Assembly (NCBI GenBank): GCA_964613055.1
Contig: CAZTGD010000001.1
Span: 6,977 to 70,976, forward strand
DNA length: 64,000 nucleotides
Source: an uncultured Caldisericales bacterium
GTDB lineage: Bacteria; Caldisericota; Caldisericia; JAAYUI01
Direction of reading: 5' to 3'
Below, one piece after another: positions 13,401 through 54,780 of this stretch. Made by a program: the position numbers and the translations under genes. A model generated the notes under the pieces. It was not told the DNA's origin and did no database searches. It saw only the letters and a program-made list of their open reading frames with translations. The first letter of the stretch is position 1, and the number at the start of each line of letters is the position of its first letter.

Positions 13401-13558
13401 TCTCTTTGCATTACATCGGGTATGGTTGTGTCTGGTTGATAGTTGGTGTGAGAAGGATCATTAAACATGTTTGGCCAATCTGAATTGGTGGTCGCTGTCA
13501 GTATAAAAGCTGGCACTAGAAGTGCGACTACAACCAGTAATGCAGTAAACTTTCTCAT
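10421..13558 (-). CDS. Large secreted cell-surface protein: PQQ-like beta-propeller repeats, Gly-rich linker, Ig-like repeats, C-terminal copper-amine-oxidase-N-like (stalk) domains
   Basis: Start refined to ATG 13558 (MRKFTALLVVVALLVPAFILTA signal peptide, GGAG RBS), clearing the eno stop. Low-complexity GGGEDGSGGGGHGGGRPGGGGHP segment. Repeated W/Y-rich propeller motifs. C-terminal VPLRFACESLGADVNWIAEE stalk-type repeats. Confidence 0.7.
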   Translation of the reverse strand: MRKFTALLVVVALLVPAFILTATTNSDWPNMFNDPSHTNYQPDTTIPDVMQREWVYYPENGTIASHIAIDDKIIFGTSQGVIVCLEQSDGRELWSYKVGEIGSAQIGYVDGKIVFICTSYMQAGGGEDGSGGGGHGGGRPGGGGHPMSTTEETEVSSVIGMISPENGAEIFKEVIKKPTTISGGLVGEEYIYLAYTEIGEDRTIGNTRFVCMDPNNQSEVWSADLDRMPLMMLTYGDGKIFTSVAKIKMNPDNPMPEINDSAVIAFDEEGKIAWEKKLDESEIAGGISYADGRIYFSKMKVPSEIGGRRMVMPTSELMACNAENGEDIWVFDISSIDYANERTVDFCLYGIPAITPRGIVLQLAMSHTICVSKNKGSLVWKNETPGGMAFTCMQFACTKDKVISTRGTKFSIANITDGEIVFTDDTMMSGGMPFGGGSMIMPMPVIANDKVFVSGDRIICYGEKVVGLYSDPSTIRINQIYPDEVKTRNVRVYYNDTGEINGTLTPSDDWISLSSTEYVTLSQTYEVTLSAEGMEPGMHSGSIDVESSVGNLSIPIEMNVVAKPPIKLDIDLDDTTITNEDSFKVEGTTVPGATLSVNGRPVTVKTDGTFSDMIPIDEGRNELKFHAEDADGNAADVIKVVILDTRRPIIRTTIKEGQKIVSLPFEFQGATERGARLMVNDEPIEVSANGEFSVILKDLEDGEYTINMVSKDKAGNVFKLNRTVIIDATKIPLELDLPEPGFAGSQTTTYTLKGKTSPNHSVVALIDNVPVGYCQSDEEGSFELEITVEGDGQYNVTVIASTMSEKTSDPTPFTLIVDSQPPAIECDIPELVSQSPVTLEGTTEPMAKVFINGQEASVDLEGNFSFEIELNSGLNAVTVKAVDTLGNESTIDSYIKFETVETIRLKLWVNEPKFVINNKQADDLDPMPTTKSPPLPAELAGNSYMPVRAVFEALGATVDWIDADRRVDVTLGNTFLQLWVDNVSTAKINGVETTIIGADGQTVLYPTIVNGRTMLPLRFACESLGADVNWIAEESAIEVVYPSEK

Positions 13559-13571
13559 ATTGTCTTCTCCT

Positions 13572-14828
13572 TTAGATAACGCCATAAGTAGCGTTTTCAC
13601 CGAGTTCTTCTTCGATTCGAAGTAACTCATTGTATTTTTCAACACGTTCAGTTCGAGCTGGAGCGCCAGTCTTTATCTGTCCACTCCTGGAAGCTACCGC
13701 CAGGTGTGCAATGAAACTGTCTGCAGTTTCACCCGAACGGTGAGAAATAACGTAGCTGTAGCCGCTTTTTCTGGCAAGCTCAATCGTTTCCCACGTCTCT
13801 TTGACACTACCGATTTGATTTAGTTTAATTAGTATTGAATTGGCAAATTTGTCTTCAATTCCCTTCTTGAATATCCCTCGATTTGTAACGAACAGGTCAT
13901 CACCAACAACCTGTATTTTATCTCTGAGGGCTTTTGTGTGAAGCTTCCATCCATCGGCATCCTGCTCTGCCATGCCATCTTCAATTGATACGATTGGGTA
14001 TTTATCTATCATCTTTTCATACCAAGCATTAAGGTCATATGAGGTGATCTGTTTACCCTCGAATGAATATTTCCCGTCTTCATATATCTCTGATGATGCG
14101 GCATCTATTGTTAGTTCACAGTCCTCACCAGGTTTATAGCCAGCCTTCTTGATGGCGTTCATCAATAGCTGGAATGCTTCCTCGTGACTCTCAAGGTCTG
14201 GTGCGAAGCCACCTTCATCGCCTACAGCTGTAGACAAACCCTTTTCGTTCAATATCTTCTTGAGTGTGTGGTAAATCTCGATTCCCATCCTCAAACCCTC
14301 TGAGAATGTATCTGCGCCAGAGGGGAAGATCATGAATTCCTGCAAGTCAAGATTGTTGCTTGCATGAGCTCCACCGTTAATCACATTCATCATTGGCACA
14401 GGTAGATGACTAGCCATTGCTCCACCAAGATATCTGTACAGTGGCATATTAAGCGAATTTGCACCAGCTCTGGCAACAGCCAATGATACTGCAAGGATTG
14501 CGTTTGCTCCTAGTTTACTCTTGTTCTTAGTCCCATCGAGTTTCAGCAGAAGACTATCAACTCCAGCCTGATCGAATACATTGAAGTCAAACAGGGAGTT
14601 GGTGATCTTGTCATTGATCGTGTTTATTGCTGTTTCTACGGATTTACCCATGTAGTATTTTGGATTGCCGTCTCTCAATTCAAGAGCCTCTCGCATTCCG
14701 GTTGACGCTCCAGATGGAACAGCGGCTCTTCCAATGATTCCGTCAGAAGTAACTACGTCCGCTTCTATAGTTGGGTTACCTCTGGAATCGATTATCTGTC
14801 TGGCTGTTACGTTTTCAATTGTACTCAT
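13572..14828 (-). CDS. eno: Enolase (phosphopyruvate hydratase)
   Basis: [17 protein letters not shown]...[16 protein letters not shown]...[10 protein letters not shown] are canonical enolase motifs. Confidence 0.92.
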
Positions 14829-14938
14829 AATCAGTCATTTCCTTTCGTCGGGGATATCAGCCCTTGACCTGACCATGTATATGATTATATATTACACACA
14901 TTCTGTGGCAAGCCCATTTACGGTCACAGAATGGTCGT

Positions 14939-15025
14939 GCCGAAGTGGCGGAATTGGTAGACGCGCATGGTTCAGGTCCATGTCCAGGCAACTGGGTGGG
15001 GGTTCAAGTCCCTTCTTCGGCACCA
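14939..15025 (+). tRNA. tRNA-Leu (anticodon CAG), long variable arm, encoded CCA
   Basis: Manual fold. Acceptor GCCGAAG/CTTCGGC. Anticodon stem CATGG/CCATG with loop TTCAGGT. Variable stem CCAG/CTGG. 3' terminal ACCA. Confidence 0.85.
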
Positions 15026-15067
15026 CTGTTTCTTAGAACCCATACAAATATCAGCTGTATTGATAAT

Positions 15068-17257
15068 ATGAGGTTATCATCTCTTGTTCTTGTTGTGACC
15101 GCTATTGTGACTACGTCTGTCGTGTCTTCATCATTAATTGCTGTTGACGATTACAGAAAAGCTCCCGCTCCACCTTTTTCTTTGACATCAAAAGTGGATA
15201 TTGAAGCTGGATATCTTTCAAAATATCCACCAGTCTCGTTTAGGGATGGGTATATTTTTGGTGACTCCAAAGGGAGACTGCAGTACATAGTTGGTGACAG
15301 TTGCTGGATGAGTGTCTCTGTTGATGGTTCAGATATCAAGTCAGCACCAATTCTGGATGGGGATATCGTATTAGTTGGTACAATGGCAGGTACGTTGGCA
15401 AGTATTCATATGCCATCTGGAGAGTTGCGATGGGCGTTCAAAGCGAAGAATGCAATTATTGGAAGACCTCTTGTAGCAGAGGATAATGTTTATTTTGGCA
15501 GTGCTGATGAGAGATTCTATTGCCTCAACTTAGAAGATGGTTCAAAAGTATTTGAATATCAAACCAATGCTCCGATATGGAGTACTCCTTGTGTTGTGGG
15601 TGATAGTGTGATTTTTGGGTGTGATGATGATTCAGTTTATTGTATCAACAGGTTTGATGGAGAGCTAATTTGGGTGTTCAAGTGCGATGGCTGGGTGGAG
15701 GCAGAACCTGTAGTTGATGATATTTTTATATACATAGGTACTTTGGGTGGGAGTGTGTATAAAATAGATATCTTAACAGGTGAATTGGAATGGAAAATAC
15801 AACTTAATGATGCAGTTCATTCAAAGGGTGTGCAGATAGATAACAGGTATTTTACCGCTGATGACTCGGGATCGATAACATGTTTGGATACTTTCAACGG
15901 AGAAATTATCTGGCAGAGAACAGACTACTCCGCAATTGATACGCCTTTAGAGACAAATGGGGAGTTGATCTATTTTACCGACGAAAACAAGAGGTTTGTT
16001 TGTTTGGATGTGTTTGGTGATCAACTCTGGAGAAGGAATATGATTCATGCGGTTCGGAGTGGTGTTTTGGTGGATGAGTACACTCTTGTTATGGTGAGTT
16101 CAGATGGATTTCTTGAATGTTGGGATGAATGTGGTTATGTAGAGGTTACACCAAAGAACCGTTATCTGGGAGAGGTTGCTGAGGAGGATGGTTTTTTTTC
16201 ATTCAGGATGGATATTGTATCAGGTAGAAAGGATGATCGAGCTTCCCAGGGGATGATCGATTATAGACCTTTTGAAGCGGGGAAAAGGTGCAAAGCAGTT
16301 CAATTCAAGGAGTTGGGAATATCCTATATCAAGAATTTGCGGGTATTCAGCTATGAAGGAAACATAGATCTTTCAGATCCGTCCTTCTGTGATGGATCGA
16401 ACGATTTCGTTGTATATTTTGGTATCGGTCAACCGTTAAGCGAGGGTGATGGGATTTACCAGTCTCCCAGCTCAGATGGAATGGTTCACACTCGGTTTAC
16501 CTTTGATTTGGTTAGTGACAGGTCAGATTGTCAGACATGCGAGCCATGTTATAAAGTCAGCATAACGCCCAATAATACACCCTATTTCAAACGAAATGAG
16601 TCTGGGAGTTTTGAGATACAAGTTTCGTCTGCAGACGATATCAACAGGGAGATAGAGATTAATATAGAGGGCATAAAGGGAATCGAAAGTGAGGAACTCA
16701 AACTGATGCAGGAAGATGGTTTAGTGTCTCACCAAATTGAGTTCGATTGCATGGATCTGCCTGGAGGTTCGTATTTTCAGATACCGATCAGTATATCGTG
16801 TGTGACCTGCCCCAGACCAAATGAGAAAATGAGGTCTGATTGGCATTCAAACAGAACGATCAGTTTCACAACAGACCCCAGGCTGAGGATAGATATGAAA
16901 CCTGATTCGGTGGATGTGTTGGTCAACGGTAATCCAGTAAGACTCGATGTGCCAGCCAGGATAGTTGATGGCAGAACTCTTGTGCCTATAAGATTTGTAG
17001 CCGAAACGTTTGGTTGTGATGTATCTTGGGAGCAGGAAACAAAGAAGGTAACTATAATTAAAGATGAAACTGTTCTCAATTACTGGGCGTATCAAAAGAG
17101 AGCCAGATTCAATGGACTTGATGTGGAAATCGATGTTGGTCCCATAATCGAAAGGGGACGAACACTCGTTCCCTTTCGCTCAGTTGCCGAATCACTTGGA
17201 GCTTATGTACGGTGGATAGCTACATCAAGAGATATAATAATTGATTGGGAGTTTTAG
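15068..17257 (+). CDS. Secreted PQQ-like beta-propeller repeat protein with two C-terminal copper-amine-oxidase-N-like (stalk) domains
   Basis: The table ORF (14945) starts inside the tRNA. ATG 15068 gives signal peptide MRLSSLVLVVTAIVTTSVVSS. Repeated propeller motifs (DG..W, YF.TADDSG). C-terminal RTLVPIRFVAETFGCDVSWE and RTLVPFRSVAESLGAYVRW. Confidence 0.7.
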   Translation: MRLSSLVLVVTAIVTTSVVSSSLIAVDDYRKAPAPPFSLTSKVDIEAGYLSKYPPVSFRDGYIFGDSKGRLQYIVGDSCWMSVSVDGSDIKSAPILDGDIVLVGTMAGTLASIHMPSGELRWAFKAKNAIIGRPLVAEDNVYFGSADERFYCLNLEDGSKVFEYQTNAPIWSTPCVVGDSVIFGCDDDSVYCINRFDGELIWVFKCDGWVEAEPVVDDIFIYIGTLGGSVYKIDILTGELEWKIQLNDAVHSKGVQIDNRYFTADDSGSITCLDTFNGEIIWQRTDYSAIDTPLETNGELIYFTDENKRFVCLDVFGDQLWRRNMIHAVRSGVLVDEYTLVMVSSDGFLECWDECGYVEVTPKNRYLGEVAEEDGFFSFRMDIVSGRKDDRASQGMIDYRPFEAGKRCKAVQFKELGISYIKNLRVFSYEGNIDLSDPSFCDGSNDFVVYFGIGQPLSEGDGIYQSPSSDGMVHTRFTFDLVSDRSDCQTCEPCYKVSITPNNTPYFKRNESGSFEIQVSSADDINREIEINIEGIKGIESEELKLMQEDGLVSHQIEFDCMDLPGGSYFQIPISISCVTCPRPNEKMRSDWHSNRTISFTTDPRLRIDMKPDSVDVLVNGNPVRLDVPARIVDGRTLVPIRFVAETFGCDVSWEQETKKVTIIKDETVLNYWAYQKRARFNGLDVEIDVGPIIERGRTLVPFRSVAESLGAYVRWIATSRDIIIDWEF

Positions 17258-34068: not shown

Positions 34069-34145
<77 letters not shown>

Positions 34146-34152
34146 TTGGTGT

Positions 34153-34226
34153 GTGCCCGTAGCTCAGTTGGATAGAGCATCTGCCTTCTAAGCAGAGGGT
34201 CGGGCGTTCGAGTCGCCCCGGGCACG
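34153..34226 (+). tRNA. tRNA-Arg (anticodon TCT)
   Basis: Acceptor GTGCCCG/CGGGCAC. Anticodon stem TCTGC/GCAGA with loop CTTCTAA. T-loop TTCGAGT. No encoded CCA. Confidence 0.8.
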
Positions 34227-34245
34227 TATATCATTGGCATGGTAT

Positions 34246-34320
34246 GGGCCCATAGCTCAGATGGATAGAGCGGCGGTCTCCTAAACCGCAGGTCGCAGGT
34301 TCGACTCCTGCTGGGCTCAC
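34246..34320 (+). tRNA. tRNA-Arg (anticodon CCT)
   Basis: Acceptor GGGCCCA/TGGGCTC. Anticodon stem GCGGT/ACCGC with loop CTCCTAA. T-loop TTCGACT. Confidence 0.8.
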
Positions 34321-34335
34321 CATCGAAAAGAGGGA

Positions 34336-34410
34336 GCGCCTATAGCTCAACTGGATAGAGCGACGGACTTCGGATCCGTAGGTTGCGGGTTCGACTCCTG
34401 CTGGGCGCGC
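34336..34410 (+). tRNA. tRNA-Arg (anticodon TCG)
   Basis: Acceptor GCGCCTA/TGGGCGC. Anticodon stem ACGGA/TCCGT with loop CTTCGGA. T-loop TTCGACT. Confidence 0.75.
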
Positions 34411-34428
34411 CATTTGTATAGTTGATGT

Positions 34429-34504
34429 GGGTTGCTAGCTCAATTGGTAGAGCATCTGACTCTTAATCAGGCGGTTGGGGGTTCGAGTCCCTTGCAACCC
34501 ACCA
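34429..34504 (+). tRNA. tRNA-Lys (anticodon CTT), encoded CCA
   Basis: Acceptor GGGTTGC/GCAACCC. Anticodon stem TCTGA/TCAGG with loop CTCTTAA. 3' terminal ACCA. Confidence 0.8.
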
Positions 34505-35536: not shown

Positions 35537-35622
35537 GCGAGGGTGGCGGAATTGGTAGACGCGTTGGATTTAGGATCCAGTGAGCTTAGCTCGTGCGGGT
35601 TCAAGTCCCGCCCTTCGTACCA
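35537..35622 (+). tRNA. tRNA-Leu (anticodon TAG), long variable arm, encoded CCA
   Basis: Acceptor GCGAGGG/CCTTCGT (two G-U pairs). Anticodon stem TTGGA/TCCAG with loop TTTAGGA. Variable stem GAGC/GCTC. 3' terminal ACCA. Confidence 0.8.
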
Positions 35623-35640
35623 ACACTATAACTTGTTGAT

Positions 35641-35715
35641 GCGGGAGTAGCTCAGTGGTAGAGCACGACCTTGCCATGGTCGGGGTCGCGGGTTCGAATC
35701 CCGTCTCCCGCTCCA
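35641..35715 (+). tRNA. tRNA-Gly (anticodon GCC), encoded CCA
   Basis: GCGGGAGTAGCTCAGTGGTAGAGCACGACCTTGCCATGGTCG... Anticodon loop TTGCCAT. 3' terminal TCCA. Confidence 0.85.
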
Positions 35716-44482: not shown

Positions 44483-46027
44483 ATGGACATAGTACTGTAT
44501 GTGATTATAGGATTCGTTATCGGAGGAGTCCTAGCATATCTTGTGGCGAATACTCTTTCTACAAAGACATCAAAAGGCAAGATAAAGCTGGCAAACGATG
44601 AAGCCGATCGAATAATTGAGAATGCTAAAAAGGAAGCTGACAGCGAGAAAAAAGAGATATTACTCACTGCTAAGGATGATGCCATGCGCATTGTCAGAGA
44701 ACAGAAGGCTGAGTTTAATCAACAAAGAAAAGAACTAACAGCTATTGAAAACAGGTTTTCTGTCAGAGAGGAGAAACTGGACCGAAGGTCTGAGAATCTT
44801 AATGCGCGTGAGAATGGTATAACAAGGCGAGAGAAAGAGCTGGATGTAAAGAATGAAAAGGTTGATCAGCTAGTCCTCAAACAACAGAAGGAACTTGAGA
44901 GAATTGCTGGTCTGTCCAGAGATGAAGCCAAGCAGGTGATATTGAGAGAAACAGAAAACAAGATGGAGCTTGAACTGGCGGCTAAGATTAAGTCCATGGA
45001 GGAAGAAGCTAAGGACAAGGCATATATCACCTCAAGGAATATCATAGCAAACTCTATTCAGAGGATTGCATCGGATTACACCGCTGAGGTAACGGTGTCT
45101 GCGGTTCCTTTGCCAAATGAGGAGATAAAGGGAAAGATAATCGGTAGGGAAGGTAGGAACATCCGCGCTTTTGAAACAGAGACCGGTGTTGATCTTCTTG
45201 TTGACGATACACCTGAGGTGGTTACAATATCCTCTTTTGACCCCATGAAGCGTGAGATAGGCAAGATGGCTTTAGAGAAACTTATCAACGATGGACGTAT
45301 ACATCCTGGAAGGATTGAAGAGGTTGTAACAAAGGCAACAAAAGAATTGGATGATAAGCTGAAGATAGAGGGTGAGCAAGCGTTGCTTGAGGTTAGTGTT
45401 CATTCAGTAAAACCAGAGTTGGTTAAATTACTAGGTAGGTTAAAATTCAGAACGTCTTATGGTCAGAATGTACTCAAGCATTCCATAGAGGTCGCACTCC
45501 TTGCTTCACACATGGCATCTGAACTAAACCTAAACACGAGAATTGCCAGAAGAGCGGGTTTGTTTCATGACATCGGAAAAGCAGTCGATAGAGAGAAGGA
45601 AGGTACACACGATGAGTTAGGCGCTGAGATACTCAAAAGGTTCAGCGAACGCACAGAGATTATTGAATCAGCACAACTTCATCACACAGACATTGCTCCT
45701 ACAAACGTTTATCCCGTCCTCATTCAGGCGGCAGATGCCATATCCGCTTCAAGACCTGGAGCCAGGAGAGAGAGTTTTGAGGCTTACATACAGAGACTTG
45801 AGTCATTAGAAGGCATTGCAAAGAGCTTTGATGGTGTTGATAAAACATTTGCAATACAGGCTGGTAGAGAACTCAGGGTAATCGTTAAACCAAAGATGAT
45901 AGATGATGTATTGGCTCATAAAATGGCAAGGGAAATTGCTCAAAGAGTCGAAAATGAACTCACCTATCCCGGTAATATAAAGGTTACTGTTATCAGGGAG
46001 AGTCGCTATTCAGAGAACGCCAAGTGA
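44483..46027 (+). CDS. rny: Ribonuclease Y
   Basis: N-terminal TM helix MDIVLYVIIGFVIGGVLAYL. Coiled coil. KH domain IIGREGRNIRAFETETGVDL. HD domain HSIEVALLASHMA...GLFHDIGKA. Confidence 0.88.
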   Translation: MDIVLYVIIGFVIGGVLAYLVANTLSTKTSKGKIKLANDEADRIIENAKKEADSEKKEILLTAKDDAMRIVREQKAEFNQQRKELTAIENRFSVREEKLDRRSENLNARENGITRREKELDVKNEKVDQLVLKQQKELERIAGLSRDEAKQVILRETENKMELELAAKIKSMEEEAKDKAYITSRNIIANSIQRIASDYTAEVTVSAVPLPNEEIKGKIIGREGRNIRAFETETGVDLLVDDTPEVVTISSFDPMKREIGKMALEKLINDGRIHPGRIEEVVTKATKELDDKLKIEGEQALLEVSVHSVKPELVKLLGRLKFRTSYGQNVLKHSIEVALLASHMASELNLNTRIARRAGLFHDIGKAVDREKEGTHDELGAEILKRFSERTEIIESAQLHHTDIAPTNVYPVLIQAADAISASRPGARRESFEAYIQRLESLEGIAKSFDGVDKTFAIQAGRELRVIVKPKMIDDVLAHKMAREIAQRVENELTYPGNIKVTVIRESRYSENAK

Positions 46028-46809
46028 TTGCACTGCTTATTGGTGATATTGTTGGCAGACCAGGCAGGAAAGCTGTCAGAGAGGTTTTGCCTTCACTCAA
46101 GGATGAACTGTCAATTGACTATGTTATTGCCAATGCTGACAATGCCTCAGGTGGATTTGGTTTAACCAGGGATAACGCCGATGAGTTGAGAACGTATGGC
46201 GTTGATGGATTCACACTTGGAAACCATGTGTGGGATCAGAAAGAAGCACCATCGATGGTTGAAAGCGATCCACAGATGGCTAGACCAGCAAACTTTCCAG
46301 AAGGCTCTCCAGGTCAAGGGTATTTTTATCTAGATGGTGTTTCTGGAATGCTTTGTGTTCTGCACCTTCAGGGAAGGGTATTCATGGATCCGATTGATTG
46401 CCCTTTTAGAGTTGGTAAAAGATTGGTTGAAGAAATGAGAGGGAACACAAAAGCCATTATCATTGACATTCATGGAGAAGCCACATCAGAGAAGCAGGCG
46501 ATTGGTGTTTATTTTGATGGAAGTGTTTCAGCGGTCGTAGGAACTCATACCCATGTAGCAACAGCCGATGAGAGAATACTTGAGGGTGGAACTGGATTTC
46601 ACACGGATGTCGGTATGACAGGTCCACATAGATCAGTTATCGGGATGAAAGCTGAGGGACCACTCAAGAAGATGGTTGAACACATGAGGACACGCTTTGA
46701 ACCGGCCGTCGAAGACGTATGGTTTAATTCCACTCTCATCGAGATTGACAAAGAAACAGGTCGATGTGTTCGAATAGAACGGGTTTCAAGGTCTATTGAC
46801 GATCAATAG
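46024..46809 (+). CDS. ymdB: YmdB-family metallophosphoesterase (2',3'-cyclic-nucleotide phosphodiesterase, TIGR00282-like)
   Basis: N-terminal IALLIGDIVGRPGR. Metallophosphoesterase motifs GNHVWD and GTHTHV. Conserved rny-ymdB pairing, as in Bacillus. GTG start overlaps the rny stop (GTGA). Confidence 0.8.
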   Translation: MIALLIGDIVGRPGRKAVREVLPSLKDELSIDYVIANADNASGGFGLTRDNADELRTYGVDGFTLGNHVWDQKEAPSMVESDPQMARPANFPEGSPGQGYFYLDGVSGMLCVLHLQGRVFMDPIDCPFRVGKRLVEEMRGNTKAIIIDIHGEATSEKQAIGVYFDGSVSAVVGTHTHVATADERILEGGTGFHTDVGMTGPHRSVIGMKAEGPLKKMVEHMRTRFEPAVEDVWFNSTLIEIDKETGRCVRIERVSRSIDDQ

Positions 46810-47545
46810 GCTCGAATGTTTCTTCAGCTGGATTTGCTTTCTTGGCAACAAACTGAATTGTTGGAGCACATCCTATGAGGTTTCTCTCTTGTGAGAGGCG
46901 GTATTCAATGGTTATGAGATTATCCAACTCGCTTTGAGTCCATTTTTCCCTTTTCAGACGATCTTCACTGAGCATAGACAAAGCAATCTGCCATCCATAG
47001 ATGTCAACCACCTTAAAACCCACTGCTTCAAGTGTCACTATTAAACTCTGAGGTGAATGGCACTCACTCACTCCGTCCCAATTACCCTGAGACTCCGTGT
47101 TATCATCAAGCAATTCAATCGCATTGCTTATTGAATTGCTGATCATGGAAAGAGAACAGGCAAAGCGGTTTGGAATACAGCCAATAAATATACCACCCTC
47201 TCGAAGTTTGTCGAATGCAAGTCGAGATGTTTTCTCTAATTCTAATTCATCGCATAACCAGCTGGATGAATATATAAACCCAAAGCTTTTATTTGGCATA
47301 TTCTGAAGCTCTTCAGGTATGCAACCTATAATATCTGATTGGGGGTCACAAAGTTTTGTCACAGCGAATCCTGATGATTCTAGATAATTGGATGTTTCAT
47401 TCTCGTTTTCACCATCCAGTACTAAAACTGCACATTCTTCATCGGGTATGTATCCAAGGATGGCGTAGCTCAACAGCTTGTTAATCGCTGTGCCAGCAAG
47501 TGTCCCCTTACCACAGTTTGGGTTTCTGTTCCACTTATCAGCCAT
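46793..47545 (-). CDS. Hypothetical protein, possible degenerate class I SAM-dependent methyltransferase fold
   Basis: VLVLDGENENE (degenerate motif I position) and REGGIFIGCIPNRF (post-II-like). Last gene of the mfd operon, translationally coupled (8-nt overlap) to the Cys-rich mini-protein. Confidence 0.4.
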   Translation of the reverse strand: MADKWNRNPNCGKGTLAGTAINKLLSYAILGYIPDEECAVLVLDGENENETSNYLESSGFAVTKLCDPQSDIIGCIPEELQNMPNKSFGFIYSSSWLCDELELEKTSRLAFDKLREGGIFIGCIPNRFACSLSMISNSISNAIELLDDNTESQGNWDGVSECHSPQSLIVTLEAVGFKVVDIYGWQIALSMLSEDRLKREKWTQSELDNLITIEYRLSQERNLIGCAPTIQFVAKKANPAEETFEPIDRQ

Positions 47546-47759
47546 TGTATGAACTCGATCTCAAATAGAACTCGATAGTGCGATCAAAGGTTGCTTCATC
47601 TTTTTTGTTAAAGTAGCATGCAGGTAGCTCCCCAAGAGCTCTGTGATACTCAATACACTCACAACATACACCATGTCTTGGGCAGTTATAAGTGCAGTTG
47701 CACTCGCTGTTTACTTCACCCTTTTTCAGTTTTCTATCTCTTCTTTTACAATTACTCAT
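47538..47759 (-). CDS. Small cysteine-rich protein (8 Cys; C-x-C...CPRHGVCCECIEYH), putative metal-binding
   Basis: 73 aa. Basic N-terminus, then CNCTYNCPRHGVCCECIEYHRALGELPACY. Start and stop overlap both neighbouring genes by 8 nt. Resembles small Cys-rich DUF-type proteins, but the family cannot be confirmed. Confidence 0.5.
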   Translation of the reverse strand: MSNCKRRDRKLKKGEVNSECNCTYNCPRHGVCCECIEYHRALGELPACYFNKKDEATFDRTIEFYLRSSSYNG

Positions 47760-48978
47760 TTCCGTCTACCAATTTTGATTTGTTCCACAGATCATCCATC
47801 TCTTTCATTGACATAGATTCTATCGGTTTATTATTTTTTTCTGATGCGTACTCAATGTATTGAAACCTCTTTGTAAACTTGTTCAATGTCAGAGAAAGTG
47901 ATATCTCAGGTTTGATTTTTGCGAATCGAGCAAGGTTGAGTAGAGTGAAAATAGTATCACCAAGTTCATTTTCAATTGATTCAATATCACCATCCCTGAT
48001 GGCATTCTTCAGTTCAGTTGTTTCCTCCAGCAGTTTCTCCATCACCCCATCTATGGTTTCCCAATCAAAACCCAATCCCTTTACAAAAGCCATTACTCTG
48101 TCAGCTCTCACCAGAGGAGGTAGGTCAGATGGAATGTCAGTAATTTTTCTTATTTCAGCTTGTTCTTCTCTTTTAATCTCACCCCACTGCTTCAGAACCT
48201 CGTCAGGCGTATCCACCGTAGAATGACCAAATACATGTGGGTGCCTGTTCCTCAGTTTTTCGAGCATTGAGTTTATTACAATTGAAATATTCAAATTATT
48301 TTTCTCAGATTCGATTCGAGAGATCATCAGAACAAGTAACAGGACGTCTCCCAACTCACTCGCTATTGAGTATTCTGAATGCCTCTTTATGGCTTCCCAG
48401 GTTTCGTATACCTCCTCTAACAGATTTTCCATTAGAGTTATTGATGTTTGCTTGGCATCCCATGGGCACTTCTTTCGGAGTGTGTCGATTATCATCTGGG
48501 CATTGTAGAAATCTTGAGCATCGTTATCAACGATGATCTCCCTTACATACTCAGCTTCATGAACTAATCCCTCTTGACCAGTGGTCTCAATCGAATTCTC
48601 ACTTCTGATCTCACGTATCTCATTTATTGCCTTTTCAGCGTTCATGTCCTTCATGACAACAAGATACACGGCACACATAGTGGCTGATCTCCCGTATCCA
48701 GCCATGCAATGTACAAGAACGGGTTGTTTCATCTGTTTCATAAAGGTTGCCCAGCGGATGAATGTCTTTAGTTGAGAGAGTGTTGGTTTACCGTAATCAG
48801 GCACAAGAAGATTGATATGATGAAAACCATACTCAGCGAGTTCTTCTTCGGAGAAAGGTATCTCGCACATTGAAGCAATTGCTTTCACGCCGGCTTTTTT
48901 GAGAAGCTTAAGCATCGTATGGCTTTCAGGTAGGGAGGAAACAATCAATTCATCTTCAATTATCCATGAGTAGTTCAC
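47752..48978 (-). CDS. Fusion protein: dual-specificity/tyrosine phosphatase domain (HCxxGxxRS) + tandem MazG nucleoside-triphosphate pyrophosphohydrolase domains
   Basis: N-terminal VLVHCMAGYGRSATMCAVYL (CX5R P-loop). C-terminal two MazG EExxE/ELGD motifs (LEEVYETWEAI...ELGDVLLLV and LEETTELKNAI...ELGDTIFTL). GTG start overlaps the mfd stop as GTGA. Strong GAGGAGGA RBS. Confidence 0.7.
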   Translation of the reverse strand: MNYSWIIEDELIVSSLPESHTMLKLLKKAGVKAIASMCEIPFSEEELAEYGFHHINLLVPDYGKPTLSQLKTFIRWATFMKQMKQPVLVHCMAGYGRSATMCAVYLVVMKDMNAEKAINEIREIRSENSIETTGQEGLVHEAEYVREIIVDNDAQDFYNAQMIIDTLRKKCPWDAKQTSITLMENLLEEVYETWEAIKRHSEYSIASELGDVLLLVLMISRIESEKNNLNISIVINSMLEKLRNRHPHVFGHSTVDTPDEVLKQWGEIKREEQAEIRKITDIPSDLPPLVRADRVMAFVKGLGFDWETIDGVMEKLLEETTELKNAIRDGDIESIENELGDTIFTLLNLARFAKIKPEISLSLTLNKFTKRFQYIEYASEKNNKPIESMSMKEMDDLWNKSKLVDGNE

Positions 48979-51900
48979 ACATCCTCCTCGCAAGCCAGTT
49001 CAATGAATTCACTGCTGATTTGTACAGGATTCTCATTCTGTTTTCGAATTCGAATCATGTTTGGTCTGATGGTTGTTCGGTTGCCAAACCTGGAGATAAG
49101 TCTGTCAAGGAAATCCTCTCTTAGTCTTGTTACAGGACCAAAGTGGAAGTTGATCGTTAGATTATCCTCCACTATCTGGGTGATACCCATTCGAGCACCC
49201 ATGACCCTTAGTTTTACCAGTTCAAATAGAGATTCAATCTCTGGTGGTGGGTGACCGAATCGATCCTCCAGCTCCAACTCAATTTTATAGACTTCATCAA
49301 GATTTTTTGATTGGATCATCCGCTGGTAGCAATCAATCCTTAAAGCCTCGTCAGGTATATATCTCTCAGGGATATAACCAGAGATCCTCAGATCAACGTT
49401 ACAATCTGAGTCGCTTTTCCTTGATGGTTTTTGAACAACACCTTTGCGTTCGTCCTCAAGCCTTTTCTTAGCATCATCGAGCATTCGAAGATAGAGGTCG
49501 TATCCAATTGCCGATATATGACCCGATTGTTCTGAACCGAGTATGTTTCCTGCACCCCTTATCTCAAGATCACGCATTGCAAGTTTGAGTCCCGCTCCGA
49601 GTTCTACAAAGTCCTTTATTGCATTGAGTCTCTCTTTGGCCACGCCAGTCAGCGCTTTTTCGTTAGGATAGAGAAAATAGGCATAGGCCCTTCGTTCTGA
49701 CCTTCCAACCCTTCCGCGTAGTTGGTACATCTGTGCCAAACCAAGATTCTGAGCGTTCTCAACGATGAGAGTGCTTGCAGAGGGGATATCCAGCCCTGAT
49801 TCAATGATTGTTGTACACAACAGAATATCGACTTCTCCTCTATAGAAAGCAAGCATGGCATCCTCAAGATCAAGCTCGGACATCCTGCCATGAGCAATCA
49901 TTATCCTAGCTTTTGGTACGAGTTTCTTCAGCTTCCATTCAATGGATGCCAATCCTCGAATCCGGTTGTTTACGTAGTATATCTGACCGCCTCTGGCTAT
50001 CTCTGTTTCTATAGCCTCCTTTACTGTTTTATCCGAGTATGGAAGCACGTAAGTTTTTACAGGCTTTCTTCCTTCAGGTGATGAGTTTATCTGAGAAACC
50101 TCTCGAACGCCATGAAGAGTCATCTCAAGCGTCCTTGGGATCGGTGTTGCTGTGAGGGTTAAGACGTCAATACTCTCTTTCAGAGATTTTATCTTCTCCT
50201 TGGCTTCCACACCAAACCTTTGTTCTTCATCAATGATCAACAATCCAATTATTTTCAACTCAACGTCATTGGACAGTAGTCGATGGGTTCCAATTACCAT
50301 CTCAATAGAACCATCCGCCAAGCCTGCTACTGTCTTGTTTTGGCTCTTCTTGCTTTTTATACGAGAAAGATGATCAACGGTGATTGGAAACGGAGCAAAA
50401 CGTTCTTTAAACGTGTTGAAGTGTTGCATCGCCAGGATCGTGGTTGGAACAAGCATAACGACTTGTTTTCCGCTGACGATTACCTTAAAAGCAGCTCGAA
50501 TGGCAATCTCCGTTTTTCCATACCCAACATCACCGCAGACCAGTCTGTCCATCGGTTGTTTGCTTTCGAGATCTTTTTTTACATCCCTGATTGCTGATAG
50601 CTGGTCTTCAGTTTCTTCGTAAGGAAATGCTGACTCCATCTCCTGTTGCCAGATGCTGTTTCCCTTGTATTGGATGCCCTGCGACAGCTCTCTCTTGGCG
50701 TAGATCTTGAGTAACTTAGCCGCAATATCCTTTGTCCCTCTAGCTACCTTAGCCAGTGTCTCTGGCCATTCTTTCCCTCCAAGACGATTTATTGAGACGG
50801 TCTCTGGATTACCGAGGTATTTATGGACAAGGGTTAGTCTCTCTGGGGGTATGTAAAGCTTATCACCTTTGGAGTATTCAACTTGCAGATACTCCTTGGT
50901 TACTCCTCCAGCTTTGACGGTTTTTAGCCCCTGGTATATACCGATCCCGAAAGTCAAATGAACCAGCAAATCACCTGGGTTAATCTCATCAATCGATGTG
51001 ATTGGTTTTCCACCCTTATACCTTCGAGTAGCTTTTATTTTTCGTCTCCATCCAAACAATTCGTTGTCGGTCAACAGGAGAATCTTTTTTCTTCTATCCT
51101 CAAAACCCTTCTCAAGCGAAATATTGACAAGATCAATGAATGGCTCGATCTCTTCCTTATCCTCTGGGTTCTCAGGTAAGTTGTCCGGTTTTTTAAATTC
51201 GTGATTTAACAGAAGTTCTGCGATCCTTGTGGGTTGTTTAGTGCCAATGACTATCCTGTATCCAGATTTAAGCTTGCTTGTTATATAATCGCTTACATCC
51301 TGAAGCCTGCCGATGAGAGGGTCGGGTTGTGGATGCTGTATACCCAAACGTTTTACCTCTGCCGGAGCCGGAGTCCTGGTGCTGTAGATTGAAATGCTGG
51401 GATTCTGTCTGGTGATATGGGGGAATTCAAGCCTTTCAATGTCGTCAAGTTCCCTTTGCGGGAGCAATTCGCCTCTCTTTAGACCTGTTATGTAAACATC
51501 CTCTGCATCTCTTCTGAATGACCTGTATTTTTCACTCAGCTCGTTTGGATCAATCCAAGCGACGGGAGATGAATCTATATAATCCAATAATCTGGTTGTT
51601 TTGACATTGAAGAAGGGTATGTAGTGCTCAATCCCAGAGAATCTTACTCCATTTTTGATATGTTCTATGTCCGTATTGACCTTAGCTTGCAGTTCAGAGT
51701 CGACCGATCGAACAGTCAGAAGGAACATGTTTATTCTAGAAATCGCACTCTCTATTCGAGTCTTATCAAGGATGATATGTGACGGTGGTAAAATCACCAC
51801 AGAGTCAACATGTTTGGAAGAGAGTTGTGTTGCGATATTGACCTCTCTGATAGTCTCAATAACATCAATATCAAACTCTATTCTGGATGGGTTATCCTGA

Positions 51901-52466
51901 TATGGTGAGAATACATCAATTATACCACCCCTTACTGCCATATCTCCAACCGATTCAACTTGGTGTTGTTGTTTATAACCAAACTCGAGAAGCTTCGTCT
52001 TCAGATTCTCAAGCGAGATGATATCATTTTTAGATAAGAGAATTGAACTCTCTTTGAGTGTTTTAACATCAATCAGGCAATCATACAGAGCTGGTAATGA
52101 TGTTGTCATCACAACAGGTTTTTCTGATTCAAGCAATCTGTACAATGATGATATCTGCCAAGATATGAGGTTGATTGAGCTGGTCGTTTTATCAAGTGGT
52201 ATTGAATCAGAATGTGGGAAGAACAACCTCACAACATCAGTATTGCTGAGTATGCCGTCCATTTCCTGATGAAGTTTTAGAGCTTTCTGCTCATTGGAGC
52301 AAACCACCAGAAGTCTGTTAATCTTTGAGGACATCGAAGCCAGGTTTATGACTAGGTCGCTATCCCTCAGACCATCAATGAATAATCTATGCCTTCTTCC
52401 TTTTGAAAGGGCAAGTATTTCATTTCCTATCTTCTTTGAAGCGAAAAATGGTATATAATCCTTCAT
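48975..52466 (-). CDS. mfd: Transcription-repair coupling factor Mfd
   Basis: 1163 aa. UvrB-homology N-terminus. RNAP-interaction (CarD-like) domain. SF2 helicase motifs GDVGYGKTEIAIRAAF, DEEQRFGV and GRVGRS. TRCF C-domain. Confidence 0.92.
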   Translation of the reverse strand: MKDYIPFFASKKIGNEILALSKGRRHRLFIDGLRDSDLVINLASMSSKINRLLVVCSNEQKALKLHQEMDGILSNTDVVRLFFPHSDSIPLDKTTSSINLISWQISSLYRLLESEKPVVMTTSLPALYDCLIDVKTLKESSILLSKNDIISLENLKTKLLEFGYKQQHQVESVGDMAVRGGIIDVFSPYQDNPSRIEFDIDVIETIREVNIATQLSSKHVDSVVILPPSHIILDKTRIESAISRINMFLLTVRSVDSELQAKVNTDIEHIKNGVRFSGIEHYIPFFNVKTTRLLDYIDSSPVAWIDPNELSEKYRSFRRDAEDVYITGLKRGELLPQRELDDIERLEFPHITRQNPSISIYSTRTPAPAEVKRLGIQHPQPDPLIGRLQDVSDYITSKLKSGYRIVIGTKQPTRIAELLLNHEFKKPDNLPENPEDKEEIEPFIDLVNISLEKGFEDRRKKILLLTDNELFGWRRKIKATRRYKGGKPITSIDEINPGDLLVHLTFGIGIYQGLKTVKAGGVTKEYLQVEYSKGDKLYIPPERLTLVHKYLGNPETVSINRLGGKEWPETLAKVARGTKDIAAKLLKIYAKRELSQGIQYKGNSIWQQEMESAFPYEETEDQLSAIRDVKKDLESKQPMDRLVCGDVGYGKTEIAIRAAFKVIVSGKQVVMLVPTTILAMQHFNTFKERFAPFPITVDHLSRIKSKKSQNKTVAGLADGSIEMVIGTHRLLSNDVELKIIGLLIIDEEQRFGVEAKEKIKSLKESIDVLTLTATPIPRTLEMTLHGVREVSQINSSPEGRKPVKTYVLPYSDKTVKEAIETEIARGGQIYYVNNRIRGLASIEWKLKKLVPKARIMIAHGRMSELDLEDAMLAFYRGEVDILLCTTIIESGLDIPSASTLIVENAQNLGLAQMYQLRGRVGRSERRAYAYFLYPNEKALTGVAKERLNAIKDFVELGAGLKLAMRDLEIRGAGNILGSEQSGHISAIGYDLYLRMLDDAKKRLEDERKGVVQKPSRKSDSDCNVDLRISGYIPERYIPDEALRIDCYQRMIQSKNLDEVYKIELELEDRFGHPPPEIESLFELVKLRVMGARMGITQIVEDNLTINFHFGPVTRLREDFLDRLISRFGNRTTIRPNMIRIRKQNENPVQISSEFIELACEEDV

Positions 52467-52510
52467 ATCAGCCAGCTAGAAATGATAAAACAGTAAAGAG
52501 AGTTAGTCAA

Positions 52511-53320
52511 ATGAGTAAGCGAATCGAGCGAATCAGAGCAGATGAACTGCTAGCGGAAAATCCTTCGGTCAACAGCAGATCAAAAGCAAAGACTCTAATT
52601 ATGGCAGGGGAAGTGAGTTATCAGAAACAGAGGATTATTAAACCGTCACACATGTTACCCAAGGATGCGCAACTAGTTATCAAACAGCCATTAAGGTATG
52701 TTGGAAGAGGAGGTTTTAAACTAGAAAAAGCTTTTGAGTCATTCGATATCTCTCCAAAGGGGTTGGTTGCTGTTGATATCGGGGCCTCCACTGGTGGTTT
52801 CACCGATTGCCTTCTACAGAATGGAGCTATAAAGGTTTATTGTGTTGATGTTGGATATGGTCAACTTGCATCAAAACTTGTTAATGACAACAGCCTTATT
52901 GTTATGGATAGGACCAATGCAAGGCATCTTACTGAAGAGAGTTTCGATGATAGACCGCAGTGTGCAACAGTAGACTGCTCCTTTATTTCAGGGTTTAAGA
53001 TCATTGAACCGTTGAAGAGAATTCTTGTTGAACCTGCCTGGATCGTATGGTTGCTGAAACCTCAGTTTGAAGCTGGTCCTGGTAAAGTGGGAAAGGGTGG
53101 AGTGATCAGAAAGAATAGTATATTGGCTGAAGCTATTAAGAATGCCCTAGTCAGGGTAAATGGAGTTGGTGCTCAAATTCGAAATGTTGTTCAATCACCT
53201 ATTACAGGTTCTGATGGTAACCATGAATTCTTAGTATATTTGGATTTTAGAAGAGAGAATGGATTGTCTATTTTGGATTCTGTTGAACGGATGCTACAGG
53301 GTCTGAGTCTGAAGCAATAA
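52511..53320 (+). CDS. tlyA: TlyA-family rRNA 2'-O-methyltransferase (S4 domain + FtsJ-like MTase)
   Basis: S4-like RADELLAEN...SRSKAKTLIMAGEV. SAM motif AVDIGASTGGFTDCLLQNGA. ATG 52511 chosen so the gene clears the divergent mfd start. The table start is 52403. Confidence 0.8.
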   Translation: MSKRIERIRADELLAENPSVNSRSKAKTLIMAGEVSYQKQRIIKPSHMLPKDAQLVIKQPLRYVGRGGFKLEKAFESFDISPKGLVAVDIGASTGGFTDCLLQNGAIKVYCVDVGYGQLASKLVNDNSLIVMDRTNARHLTEESFDDRPQCATVDCSFISGFKIIEPLKRILVEPAWIVWLLKPQFEAGPGKVGKGGVIRKNSILAEAIKNALVRVNGVGAQIRNVVQSPITGSDGNHEFLVYLDFRRENGLSILDSVERMLQGLSLKQ

Positions 53321-53903: not shown

Positions 53904-54212
53904 CTATTCCTCCAATTCCTCCATACTCTCCTCAATAAGCTCCTCGTTGATGTCGTCTAGATCTTCGCTCTCTCCAAGCAGATCCTTATCAATGATTGGT
54001 TTCACTGGACTTGGCTTCTTGTACTCAAAGGTGTATTTGCCTTCCAGAAACTCATCAATCGCTTGCTCTACAGTGAATCGTTGAGAACCAGCAATCAGTT
54101 TTTCTTTTCTTTCTTGGATTTGGGCAACCCTTTTGGCAAGAAACAAAGTAGCCAAATACTTATTTCCATCCATCTTCTCTACAAACTTCTCTATCTTTGC
54201 TCGGTCAATCAT
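53904..54212 (-). CDS. rpoZ: DNA-directed RNA polymerase subunit omega (with acidic C-terminal tail)
   Basis: KYLATLFLAKRVAQIQ matches the RpoZ core helix pattern. Conserved gmk-rpoZ order. Start at ATG 54212 (8-nt overlap with gmk) preferred over 54227. Confidence 0.6.
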   Translation of the reverse strand: MIDRAKIEKFVEKMDGNKYLATLFLAKRVAQIQERKEKLIAGSQRFTVEQAIDEFLEGKYTFEYKKPSPVKPIIDKDLLGESEDLDDINEELIEESMEELEE

Positions 54213-54780
54213 GTGACCTCCTGACACGGCAGTTATGTATTATCTTGGTTACATCATCCACTGCCTGCTCGATATTGTGATTTACTACAGAATAATCATA
54301 AATCAAGGAAAAATCAATCTCATTTTGAGCGTTGTCGAGACGATGTGTAATAGTTTCGGGGTTTTCGTTTTTTCTGTTACTCAGTCTCTTTCTCAATTCG
54401 TCTATTGAGGGAGGTGACAAAAAGATCATAACCGATGAGGGTAGTCTTTTTTTTATCTGTCTTGCTCCCTTTACATCGATGACAAGAAGACAGTCAATGT
54501 TTTCCTTTATTCTTTTTTCAATCGGATCTGCTGGTGTACCGTAACGATTTCCGTGGACACTTGCCCACTCCAAGTATCTGCTTTCAGCAACGCCTTCATT
54601 GAACTCATTTTCGGTTCTGAAGATATAGTCAACACAATTCTCTTCGTTATCCCTTCTTGGTCTTGTTGTCTCGGAGATTGAAACAAAGAGTTCCAAGTTT
54701 TCTTTTAATTGTCTTTCTATCGTGGTTTTACCAACGCCAGATGGTCCAGAGATAATGAAAAGGGTTCCCTTGTTAATCAT
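54205..54780 (-). CDS. gmk: Guanylate kinase
   Basis: TLFIISGPSGVGKTTI P-loop. GMP-binding SISETTRPRR..E..G..Y.F. Confidence 0.9.
   Translation of the reverse strand: MINKGTLFIISGPSGVGKTTIERQLKENLELFVSISETTRPRRDNEENCVDYIFRTENEFNEGVAESRYLEWASVHGNRYGTPADPIEKRIKENIDCLLVIDVKGARQIKKRLPSSVMIFLSPPSIDELRKRLSNRKNENPETITHRLDNAQNEIDFSLIYDYSVVNHNIEQAVDDVTKIIHNCRVRRSHD

Follow-up and report, generated by a model that had tools for sequence, protein, structure and literature searches.

We analysed a 64,000-nt stretch of a compact Caldisericia-type genome (hereafter the window), with the focus on a cluster of four minus-strand genes at positions 46793-52466 that begins with mfd. Directly downstream of mfd lies a gene whose product joins a Cys-based dual-specificity phosphatase (DSP) domain to a tandem MazG nucleoside triphosphate (NTP) pyrophosphohydrolase. 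This fusion gene is followed by a gene for a Cys-rich mini-protein of the Pfam family DUF6485 and by one for a degenerate class I methyltransferase (MTase)-like protein (Table 1). A preliminary description of this DNA had given overlaps of 4, 8 and 8 nt for the four genes, and the open reading frames (ORFs) together with the reads of the junctions confirmed them, leaving zero intergenic gaps inside the cluster. At the mfd/fusion junction, mfd ends in GAT GTG TGA, so that the GTG start and the TGA stop share the four letters GTGA (48975-48978). The fusion and mini-protein genes meet in ATGAGTAA, where the end AAT GAG TAA runs over the start ATG AGT AAT (47752-47759), and the mini-protein and MTase-like genes meet in ATGGCTGA, where AAT GGC TGA runs over ATG GCT GAT (47538-47545). 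For the fusion, the ORF list gives an alternative upstream TTG at 48993; we placed the start at the GTG at 48978, because nearly all 16 homologues begin with MN[YF]SWI. Each of the four ORFs has homologues in five syntenic contigs, indicating that they are genuine genes and did not arise by chance.

Table 1. Features of the mfd cluster, in window positions.
Feature	Position	Strand	Basis
mfd (transcription-repair coupling factor), 1163 aa	48975..52466	-	TIGR00580 and five Pfam domains
DSP-MazG fusion, 408 aa, GTG start	47752..48978	-	Pfam/NCBIfam models; family alignment
DUF6485 mini-protein, 73 aa, 8 Cys	47538..47759	-	PF20095
Degenerate class I methyltransferase-like protein, 250 aa	46793..47545	-	hhalign against true MTases; PDB 2avn
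Cys-based dual-specificity phosphatase domain, residues 1-145 of fusion	48544..48978	-	PF22784, PF00782, PDB matches
P-loop HCMAGYGRS, residues 90-98 of fusion	48685..48711	-	sequence; 17-sequence alignment
Tandem MazG NTP pyrophosphohydrolase, residues 161-402 of fusion	47773..48498	-	NF007113, TIGR00444, 3CRA
Sigma-70-like match TTGACT-17-TATCAT, 16 nt upstream of mfd ATG	52482..52510	-	consensus scan
GAGGAGGA, Shine-Dalgarno-like run within last mfd codons, 3 nt before fusion GTG	48982..48989	-	sequence
Convergent 3' overlap, 17 nt, of MTase-like gene (-) and ymdB (46024..46809, +)	46793..46809	.	ORF list

The N-terminus of the fusion matched PF22784 (PTP-SAK) with 61.1 bits (cut-off 27; model positions 4-151 of 153), PF00782 (DSPc) with 57.3 bits (cut-off 33.5) and Tc-R-P with 55 bits, which is also above the cut-off. 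Among proteins of solved structure in the PDB, this domain matched 25xa (4e-22), ShufPTP (9e-16), DUSP23 (8e-14), TkPTP (~1e-13), SsoPTP (1.5e-12) and PTPMT1 (1.7e-11); the matches to DUSP23, SsoPTP, TkPTP and 25xa span the entire domain. The sequence contains both VLVHCMAGYGRS (residues 87-98) and CNCTYNCPRHGVCCECIEYH, and the Cys count of the mini-protein is exactly 8. The catalytic set of the window domain comprises HCMAGYGRS (His90-Cys91-x5-Arg97-Ser98), Asp61 within VPDYGKPT, and Gln135 in the ETxxQ loop (IETTGQE); Asp61, Cys91, Arg97 and Gln135 line up with the catalytic residues of 25xa, ShufPTP and DUSP23. Since the clade to which the window protein belongs keeps every catalytic residue, its phosphatase domain is most likely active.

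The remainder of the fusion, residues 161-402, scored 256.5 bits against NF007113 (equivalog cut-off 208) and 221.8 bits against TIGR00444 (cut-off 148.3). PF03819 matched the protein in two stretches, and E. coli MazG (3CRA) could be aligned across both MazG halves (E 8e-43). In addition, all 17 sequences of the family share the acidic metal-binding residues E189/E192/E195/E208/D211 and E318/E319/E322/E338/D341. Judged by its residues, this part is a complete, catalytically intact tandem MazG of the E. coli type. MazG converts NTPs and deoxy-NTPs into nucleoside monophosphates (NMPs) and pyrophosphate (PPi), and in this way cleans the nucleotide pool. The fusion is not a member of YabN: NF052436 reached 250 bits against a cut-off of 525 and covered model positions 226-485 only (fusion residues 152-402), and a Pfam scan of the fusion gave no match to the tetrapyrrole-methylase family PF00590. 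The YabN model fails because the tetrapyrrole-methylase domain is absent. With both the DSPc part and the two MazG stretches above their cut-offs in the domain search of 47752..48978, the earlier proposal of a CX5R DSP fused to a tandem MazG, in place of the methylase domain of YabN, was borne out.

To see how far the fusion extends, about 5.8 billion protein clusters were searched, which gave 3051 matches. Among the best 120 of these, DSP and MazG are joined in 17 clusters only (P0001-P0017, 47-100% identity), and the next listed matches are plain MazG or YabN-type proteins that align in the MazG part only (≤45% identity); fusions with a more distant MazG part could lie further down. All named members carry the label 'Caldisericia bacterium', the taxonomy of the clade resting on the cluster names of P0003 and P0006. 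From this distribution, the fusion appears to have arisen once, within this lineage. The architecture is previously undescribed, and a literature search for DSP-PTPase, or for a fusion of MazG with a dual-specificity phosphatase, found no paper.

Within the family, the mean pairwise identity of the DSP domain is 0.53 compared to 0.59 and 0.60 for the two MazG halves. The phosphatase domain is thus nearly as conserved as its fusion partner, indicating that it is under purifying selection. None of the 17 sequences departs from C91, G94 or R97, so the catalytic Cys-x5-Arg, on which the earlier assignment hinged, holds on proper alignment. The other catalytic residues follow a graded pattern. P0001-P0006, which form the window clade, keep both the general-acid Asp and the Gln loop; of the two, P0007 and P0008 retain only the Asp, and neither is left in P0009-P0017. 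Members P0013-P0017 additionally have another residue in place of the His that precedes the Cys (FCDQGFDRA), and acidic residues are found inside their P-loop. The losses in P0007-P0017 reflect either a changed substrate chemistry or a progressive inactivation.

Mfd itself is canonical. It scored 1017 bits against TIGR00580 (equivalog, full length; cut-off 800), contains UvrB_inter, CarD_TRCF_RID, DEAD, Helicase_C and TRCF domains above their cut-offs, and is 65-78% identical to the Mfd proteins of the five syntenic loci. The linkage of mfd and mazG had been described beforehand as a known Firmicutes arrangement; it is indeed known, and it also occurs beyond that phylum. In Mycobacterium tuberculosis, Rv1019-Rv1020-Rv1021, of which the last two are mfd-mazG, was shown experimentally to be co-transcribed (bioRxiv 10.1101/2020.02.10.941963), and the mycobacterial MazG is described as a housecleaning NTP pyrophosphohydrolase that acts on oxidised dCTP and is tied to genome stability (PMC3855555). 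A Firmicute locus (L003) has a YabN-type mazG with mfd ~4.5 kb upstream of it. At the other MazG-only loci, which come from other phyla, mfd was absent from the flank examined. The new element of the window is the N-terminal phosphatase domain.

The neighbourhood was compared in five contigs that encode homologues of the fusion with 47-62% identity (L012, L013, L022, L023 and L024). All five share a common 15-kb order: Ca-ATPase, gmk, rpoZ-like, plsY, tlyA (opposite strand), mfd, fusion, further genes, MTase-like gene, and then ymdB, rny, recX and recA on the opposite strand. The mfd and fusion genes overlap by 4 nt in L012, L022 and L023 and by 1 nt in L024, and are separated by a 3-nt gap in L013. 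The order mfd, fusion, DUF6485, MTase-like gene is kept in 5/5 contigs if insertions are allowed. The DUF6485 ORF lies directly upstream of the MTase-like gene in all five and overlaps it (by 4-41 nt across the six genomes). A 401-aa opposite-strand gene stands between the fusion and the DUF6485/MTase-like pair in L013, and a gene for a GNAT acetyltransferase in L022. Given the orientation of the L013 insert, transcription of the pair must start from a separate promoter in that contig. These insertions indicate two separable units, mfd-fusion and DUF6485-MTase-like, which are usually adjacent, and the four genes are not an obligate unit. Moreover, the unrelated housekeeping genes of the 15-kb region are equally conserved, so the shared gene order reflects a low level of genome rearrangement. 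In the plsY-gmk interval, the window encodes a 107-aa protein (53904-54227, minus strand) that reached 23.2 bits against RNA_pol_Rpb6 (RpoZ), below the gathering score of 26; it has an acidic C-terminal tail, and its counterparts in the related contigs have no recorded Pfam match.

The overlaps had been taken beforehand to imply translational coupling. When genes were called crudely across the entire window, overlaps were found at 18 of 40 same-strand junctions, and the gap had a median of 0. Overlapping is a genome-wide trait of this tightly packed genome that is not peculiar to the mfd cluster, and it therefore says little about the mfd operon specifically. The Shine-Dalgarno-like run before the fusion is kept as gaggagga in L012 and L024, gaggag in L013 and gaggac in L022 and L023. 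In the window, the DUF6485 and MTase-like genes have only weak Shine-Dalgarno-like sequences, which fits termination-reinitiation. Translational coupling within the cluster is plausible on this sequence evidence, but would be nothing special. A consensus scan found no minus-strand terminator-like site inside the cluster, and 14 promoter-like matches in the region compared to 15.1 expected by chance; the match upstream of mfd is a consensus match only. In the interval 52403-52520, mfd (minus strand) diverges from a tlyA-like gene for an FtsJ/S4 rRNA methyltransferase (plus strand). Their likely start codons are at most ~45 nt apart, and the longest tlyA ORF overlaps the mfd start. Owing to this closeness, the sole mfd promoter-like match (52510..52482) is located at or inside the 5' end of tlyA. 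At the other end of the cluster, the convergent 3' overlap of ymdB and the MTase-like gene recurs in L012, L022, L023 and L024 (11-32 nt), and in the window it leaves no room for a terminator.

The 73-aa protein with 8 Cys had been left unassigned in the preliminary description. This did not hold, as it matched PF20095 (DUF6485) with 30.2 bits (cut-off 24). We aligned 42 homologues of 53-73 aa that are 44-66% identical to the window protein; those with names come from Omnitrophota, Elusimicrobia, Spirochaetales, Bacteroidales, Deltaproteobacteria and Portnoybacteria. The family has the signature C-x(n)-CNCTY-x(1,2)-CPRHGVCCEC-xx-YHR-x3-ELPACYF ... E-x-T-Y-D-R-S, and the window protein conforms to the pattern CxC-x3/4-C-x5-CC-x-C ... 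C. In the 42 sequences C20, C22, C26, C32, C35, C48 and H39 are invariant, C33 is present in at least 90%, and the N-terminal Cys is kept in most homologues. It is a reasonable inference that DUF6485 binds metal, either Zn or Fe-S. Its AlphaFold model had a pLDDT of 66.9 and no fold match in the PDB, and a sequence search likewise gave no PDB relative. A lenient Pfam scan revealed no second Pfam family in any of the 42 members, and no paper mentions DUF6485 according to a full-text search.

The DUF6485 ORF is uncalled in the source annotations of all five related contigs, where it occupies 8230-8418 (L012), 9618-9812 (L013), 9006-9173 (L022), 8273-8461 (L023) and 8230-8436 (L024). The exact window sequence is absent from a collection of 15 billion proteins. 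Gene callers systematically overlook this conserved small gene, which is wedged between overlapping neighbours. In other lineages, DUF6485 is found beside Fur-ZnuABC genes (L018 and L019, both Omnitrophota), GGDEF and Big_5 (L020), a B12-radical SAM protein (L014), HSP90 (L026), nitroreductase and SIR2 (L025) or YjbQ (L027). Across these six other lineages there was neither a recurrent neighbour nor an MTase-like partner, and the pairing with a pseudo-methyltransferase is peculiar to Caldisericia. At positions 1-4201 of L018 and L019, DUF6485 is on the same strand as, and downstream of, genes for a Fur-family regulator, ZnuA, ZnuC, ZnuB and a 395-aa unknown protein. This context, seen in one lineage only, hints at a zinc-related role of DUF6485.

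The 250-aa protein encoded at the end of the cluster had no Pfam match, methyltransferase models included, and no NCBIfam match. A hidden Markov model (HMM) search of 1.84 billion representative proteins returned 13 matches at E ≤ 1e-3. Two of them are full-length orthologues (P0165 and P0166), and the distant matches P0171, P0173 and P0177 are genuine Methyltransf_11/25 enzymes. When separate alignments of 10 family members and of 3 Methyltransf_11/25 proteins were compared with hhalign, they matched over 209 columns with 99.7% probability (E 3.4e-25), and the best PDB match was the Thermotoga UbiE-related methyltransferase 2avn (E 0.0056). Motif I (E/D-x-G-x-G-x-G) is absent from the family, which has DGENENE (window), DGEFSHS, HGPKQAE or SGPKQAE instead, with G45 alone kept. 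About 19 residues around beta-3 are deleted, and two invariant Cys, C66 and C75, are found in the former cofactor region. The class I fold homology and the loss of GxGxG agree with the previous view of a degenerate MTase-like protein, and it very probably no longer binds S-adenosylmethionine (SAM), judging from the altered motif. A role in defence was considered for the genes downstream of mfd and rejected, as none of the PADLOC models matched any of the three proteins.

Other features of the window lie outside the cluster. Genes for tRNAs (Pro-TGG, Arg-TCT, Arg-CCT, Arg-TCG and Lys-CTT) are clustered at 34069-34504, a further pair (Leu-TAG and Gly-GCC) lies at 35537-35715, and a lone tRNA-Leu-CAG (14939-15025) overlaps the longest-ORF start of the next gene, which encodes 770 aa. 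The latter is one of two large, apparently secreted proteins (10421-13645, minus strand, 1074 aa; 14945-17257, plus strand, 770 aa). One of the two contains the Gly-rich low-complexity insert GGGEDGSGGGGHGGGRPGGGGHP, and they share a similar copper-amine-oxidase-like 'stalk' repeat (VPxRFVAExxGxxVxW) at the C-terminus. An enolase gene lies between them; the seeming 1.3-kb ORF-free gap at 13646-14944 is this gene, which was lost to the overlap filter of the crude gene call.

How might these genes work? We propose that the cluster serves this compact Caldisericia-type genome as its housekeeping mfd-mazG transcription unit, in which the tandem MazG would have gained a DUSP23/archaeal-PTP-like Cys phosphatase at its N-terminus, in the slot occupied in YabN by the tetrapyrrole-methylase-like domain. 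The phosphatase would act on a phosphorylated small molecule of the same nucleotide pathway, for instance an NTP or NDP, PPi or an alarmone, so that the fusion would sanitise the nucleotide pool in two steps and be co-expressed with Mfd for genome maintenance. The two downstream genes would constitute a separate lineage-specific module, in which the metal-binding DUF6485 protein is coupled translationally to the SAM-less MTase-fold protein and forms a stoichiometric 1:1 complex with it, analogous to that of Trm112 with its methyltransferases. Taking the sanitising fusion and the separate DUF6485/MTase-like module as a whole, we lean slightly towards this explanation.

Phosphoanhydride-cleaving Cys-phosphatases such as the RNA triphosphatases Mce1, BVP and PIR1/DUSP11 do without a general acid, which phosphotyrosine (pTyr) and phosphoserine (pSer) phosphatases are not known to do. 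That half of the fusion family lacks the general acid but keeps Cys and Arg therefore hints at a phosphoanhydride or nucleotide substrate. Among the best-scoring DSP families are, by the descriptions in Pfam, bacterial DSPs joined to small-molecule enzymes, such as PTP-NADK ('DSP-PTPase phosphatase fused to NAD+ Kinase'). A nucleotide or phosphoanhydride is thus our tentative candidate for the substrate, at somewhat less than an even chance. We infer that the fusion joins two phospho-hydrolases of one pathway; possible roles in series with MazG include the processing of aberrant NTPs beyond the NMP stage, the removal of PPi, and action on alarmones or on 5'-triphosphate ends. As for the downstream module, a 1:1 complex of DUF6485 and the MTase-like protein is probable by analogy, and their overlap in six genomes together with the lack of a strong Shine-Dalgarno sequence in the window fits such a complex. 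The more specific combination of a DUSP23-like nucleotide/phosphoanhydride phosphatase in series with MazG and of DUF6485 as the obligate partner of a SAM-less MTase-fold protein is doubtful, and we give it only a small chance of holding in full.

Several observations speak against the proposed explanation. The closest solved relatives of the N-terminal domain are described as protein tyrosine/dual-specificity phosphatases, not as nucleotide phosphatases. The window clade keeps the general acid, which would equally fit an ordinary phosphomonoester (protein) substrate. DUF6485 is found in many phyla without an MTase-like neighbour, indicating that its core function is independent of that partner. 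Finally, the AlphaFold2 model of the MTase-like protein, which was built from a 3-sequence alignment, was unusable (mean pLDDT 37.6).

The first two of these observations lead to an alternative in which an ordinary protein tyrosine/dual-specificity phosphatase was fused by chance to mazG. Its targets would be phosphoproteins, perhaps regulators of stress or DNA damage, and the fusion would mean co-expression only. Indeed, the nearest solved relatives DUSP23/VHZ, SsoPTP, TkPTP and ShufPTP were characterised as protein phosphatases, and the window clade has the complete pTyr-type set of HCX5RS, Asp61 and Gln135. A chance fusion is, however, difficult to reconcile with its stability over 47-100% identity, with no split version among the full-length members. 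A pTyr/pSer phosphatase would be disabled by losing the general acid and the Q-loop, as half of the family has done, and the conserved neighbourhood contains no kinase or obvious phosphoprotein partner. We regard this alternative as unlikely, if still a serious contender.

The same losses could also mean that the phosphatase domain is mainly a non-catalytic module of MazG, which binds phosphate for regulation or recruits substrates from the same slot as the N-terminal domain of YabN. The content of this slot does vary: TP_methylase is found in the YabN-type proteins P0024 and P0027, nothing in most others, and a DSP here. Moreover, the members P0013-P0017, in which Asp, Gln loop and the His before the Cys are gone and the P-loop has become acidic, are in line with a loss of catalysis. 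Classical pseudophosphatases usually lose the catalytic Cys, which is not seen in this family, where Cys91 and Arg97 are invariant in 17/17 sequences and the window clade has a textbook active site. We therefore consider a mainly non-catalytic domain improbable. That all four genes form one obligate functional system, with its stoichiometry enforced by translational coupling, is very improbable: the window has no intergenic gaps and five relatives keep the order, but L013 and L022 insert genes between the fusion and the pair, overlaps are generic (18/40 junctions), the whole 15-kb housekeeping neighbourhood is equally conserved, and DUF6485 has unrelated neighbours elsewhere.

The proposed sanitising fusion matters because it bears on two debated questions, namely what MazG acts on physiologically and why it accompanies mfd. 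Like a 'Rosetta stone', its natural joining with another phospho-hydrolase gives a hint on the fate of MazG substrates or products, and the loss of the general acid with Cys and Arg kept constitutes a natural experiment on leaving-group chemistry. If true, the nucleotide/phosphoanhydride reading would mean that in bacteria this phosphatase fold has physiological substrates of a class new to it. The locus also offers a first genomic 'handle' on DUF6485, a strongly conserved ~65-aa protein with 8 Cys from many anaerobic phyla, which would be a widespread metal-binding mini-protein of anaerobes if the proposal is correct.

The individual proteins can be compared with known systems. Trm112 is a small metal-binding partner of class I methyltransferases, and the window pair resembles it in that a small Cys-rich protein and a class I MTase-fold protein are encoded together and presumably bind each other. 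The likeness is one of analogy only: no sequence kinship was found, as Pfam gives DUF6485 only; the window partner has no SAM loop, and DUF6485 mostly occurs without such a partner. The MTase-like protein aligns with the TM1389-type UbiE-related methyltransferase 2avn and with Methyltransf_11 from beta-1 to the C-terminal GxAxxIxFVxKK, but differs from them by the single Gly in place of GxGxG, the beta-3 deletion and the two invariant Cys. The phosphatase domain shares with DUSP23/VHZ and the archaeal PTPs (SsoPTP 2i6i, TkPTP 5z59, ShufPTP 9e9l and 25xa) its length of ~150 aa, the HCxxGxxR(S/T) P-loop, the PD general-acid loop ~30 residues upstream and the ETxxQ loop. Those are stand-alone proteins, whereas the window domain is fused to MazG, and half of the fusion family has lost the Asp and Gln loops.

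The MazG part aligns over the full length of the tandem domains with E. coli MazG (PDB 3CRA/3CRC) and keeps the acidic metal ligands in both halves. The E. coli gene stands in a relA-mazEF-mazG context and its product is not known to have an N-terminal extension, unlike the window MazG with its phosphatase domain. Bacillus YabN comes closer in layout, being a MazG with an extra N-terminal domain encoded in the neighbourhood of mfd. There, however, the N-terminal domain is tetrapyrrole-methylase-like (PF00590) instead of a Cys phosphatase, and it is in the window that mazG directly abuts mfd with a 4-nt overlap. In M. tuberculosis (Rv1020-Rv1021), mazG is directly downstream of mfd on the same strand, as in the window. 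The mycobacterial operon starts with a TetR regulator, its MazG has no phosphatase domain, judged from descriptions only, and a DUF6485 or MTase-like gene is not reported for it. Existing knowledge is not overturned by these comparisons: the cluster varies the known mfd-mazG unit in a lineage-specific way and has an orphan gene pair attached to it.

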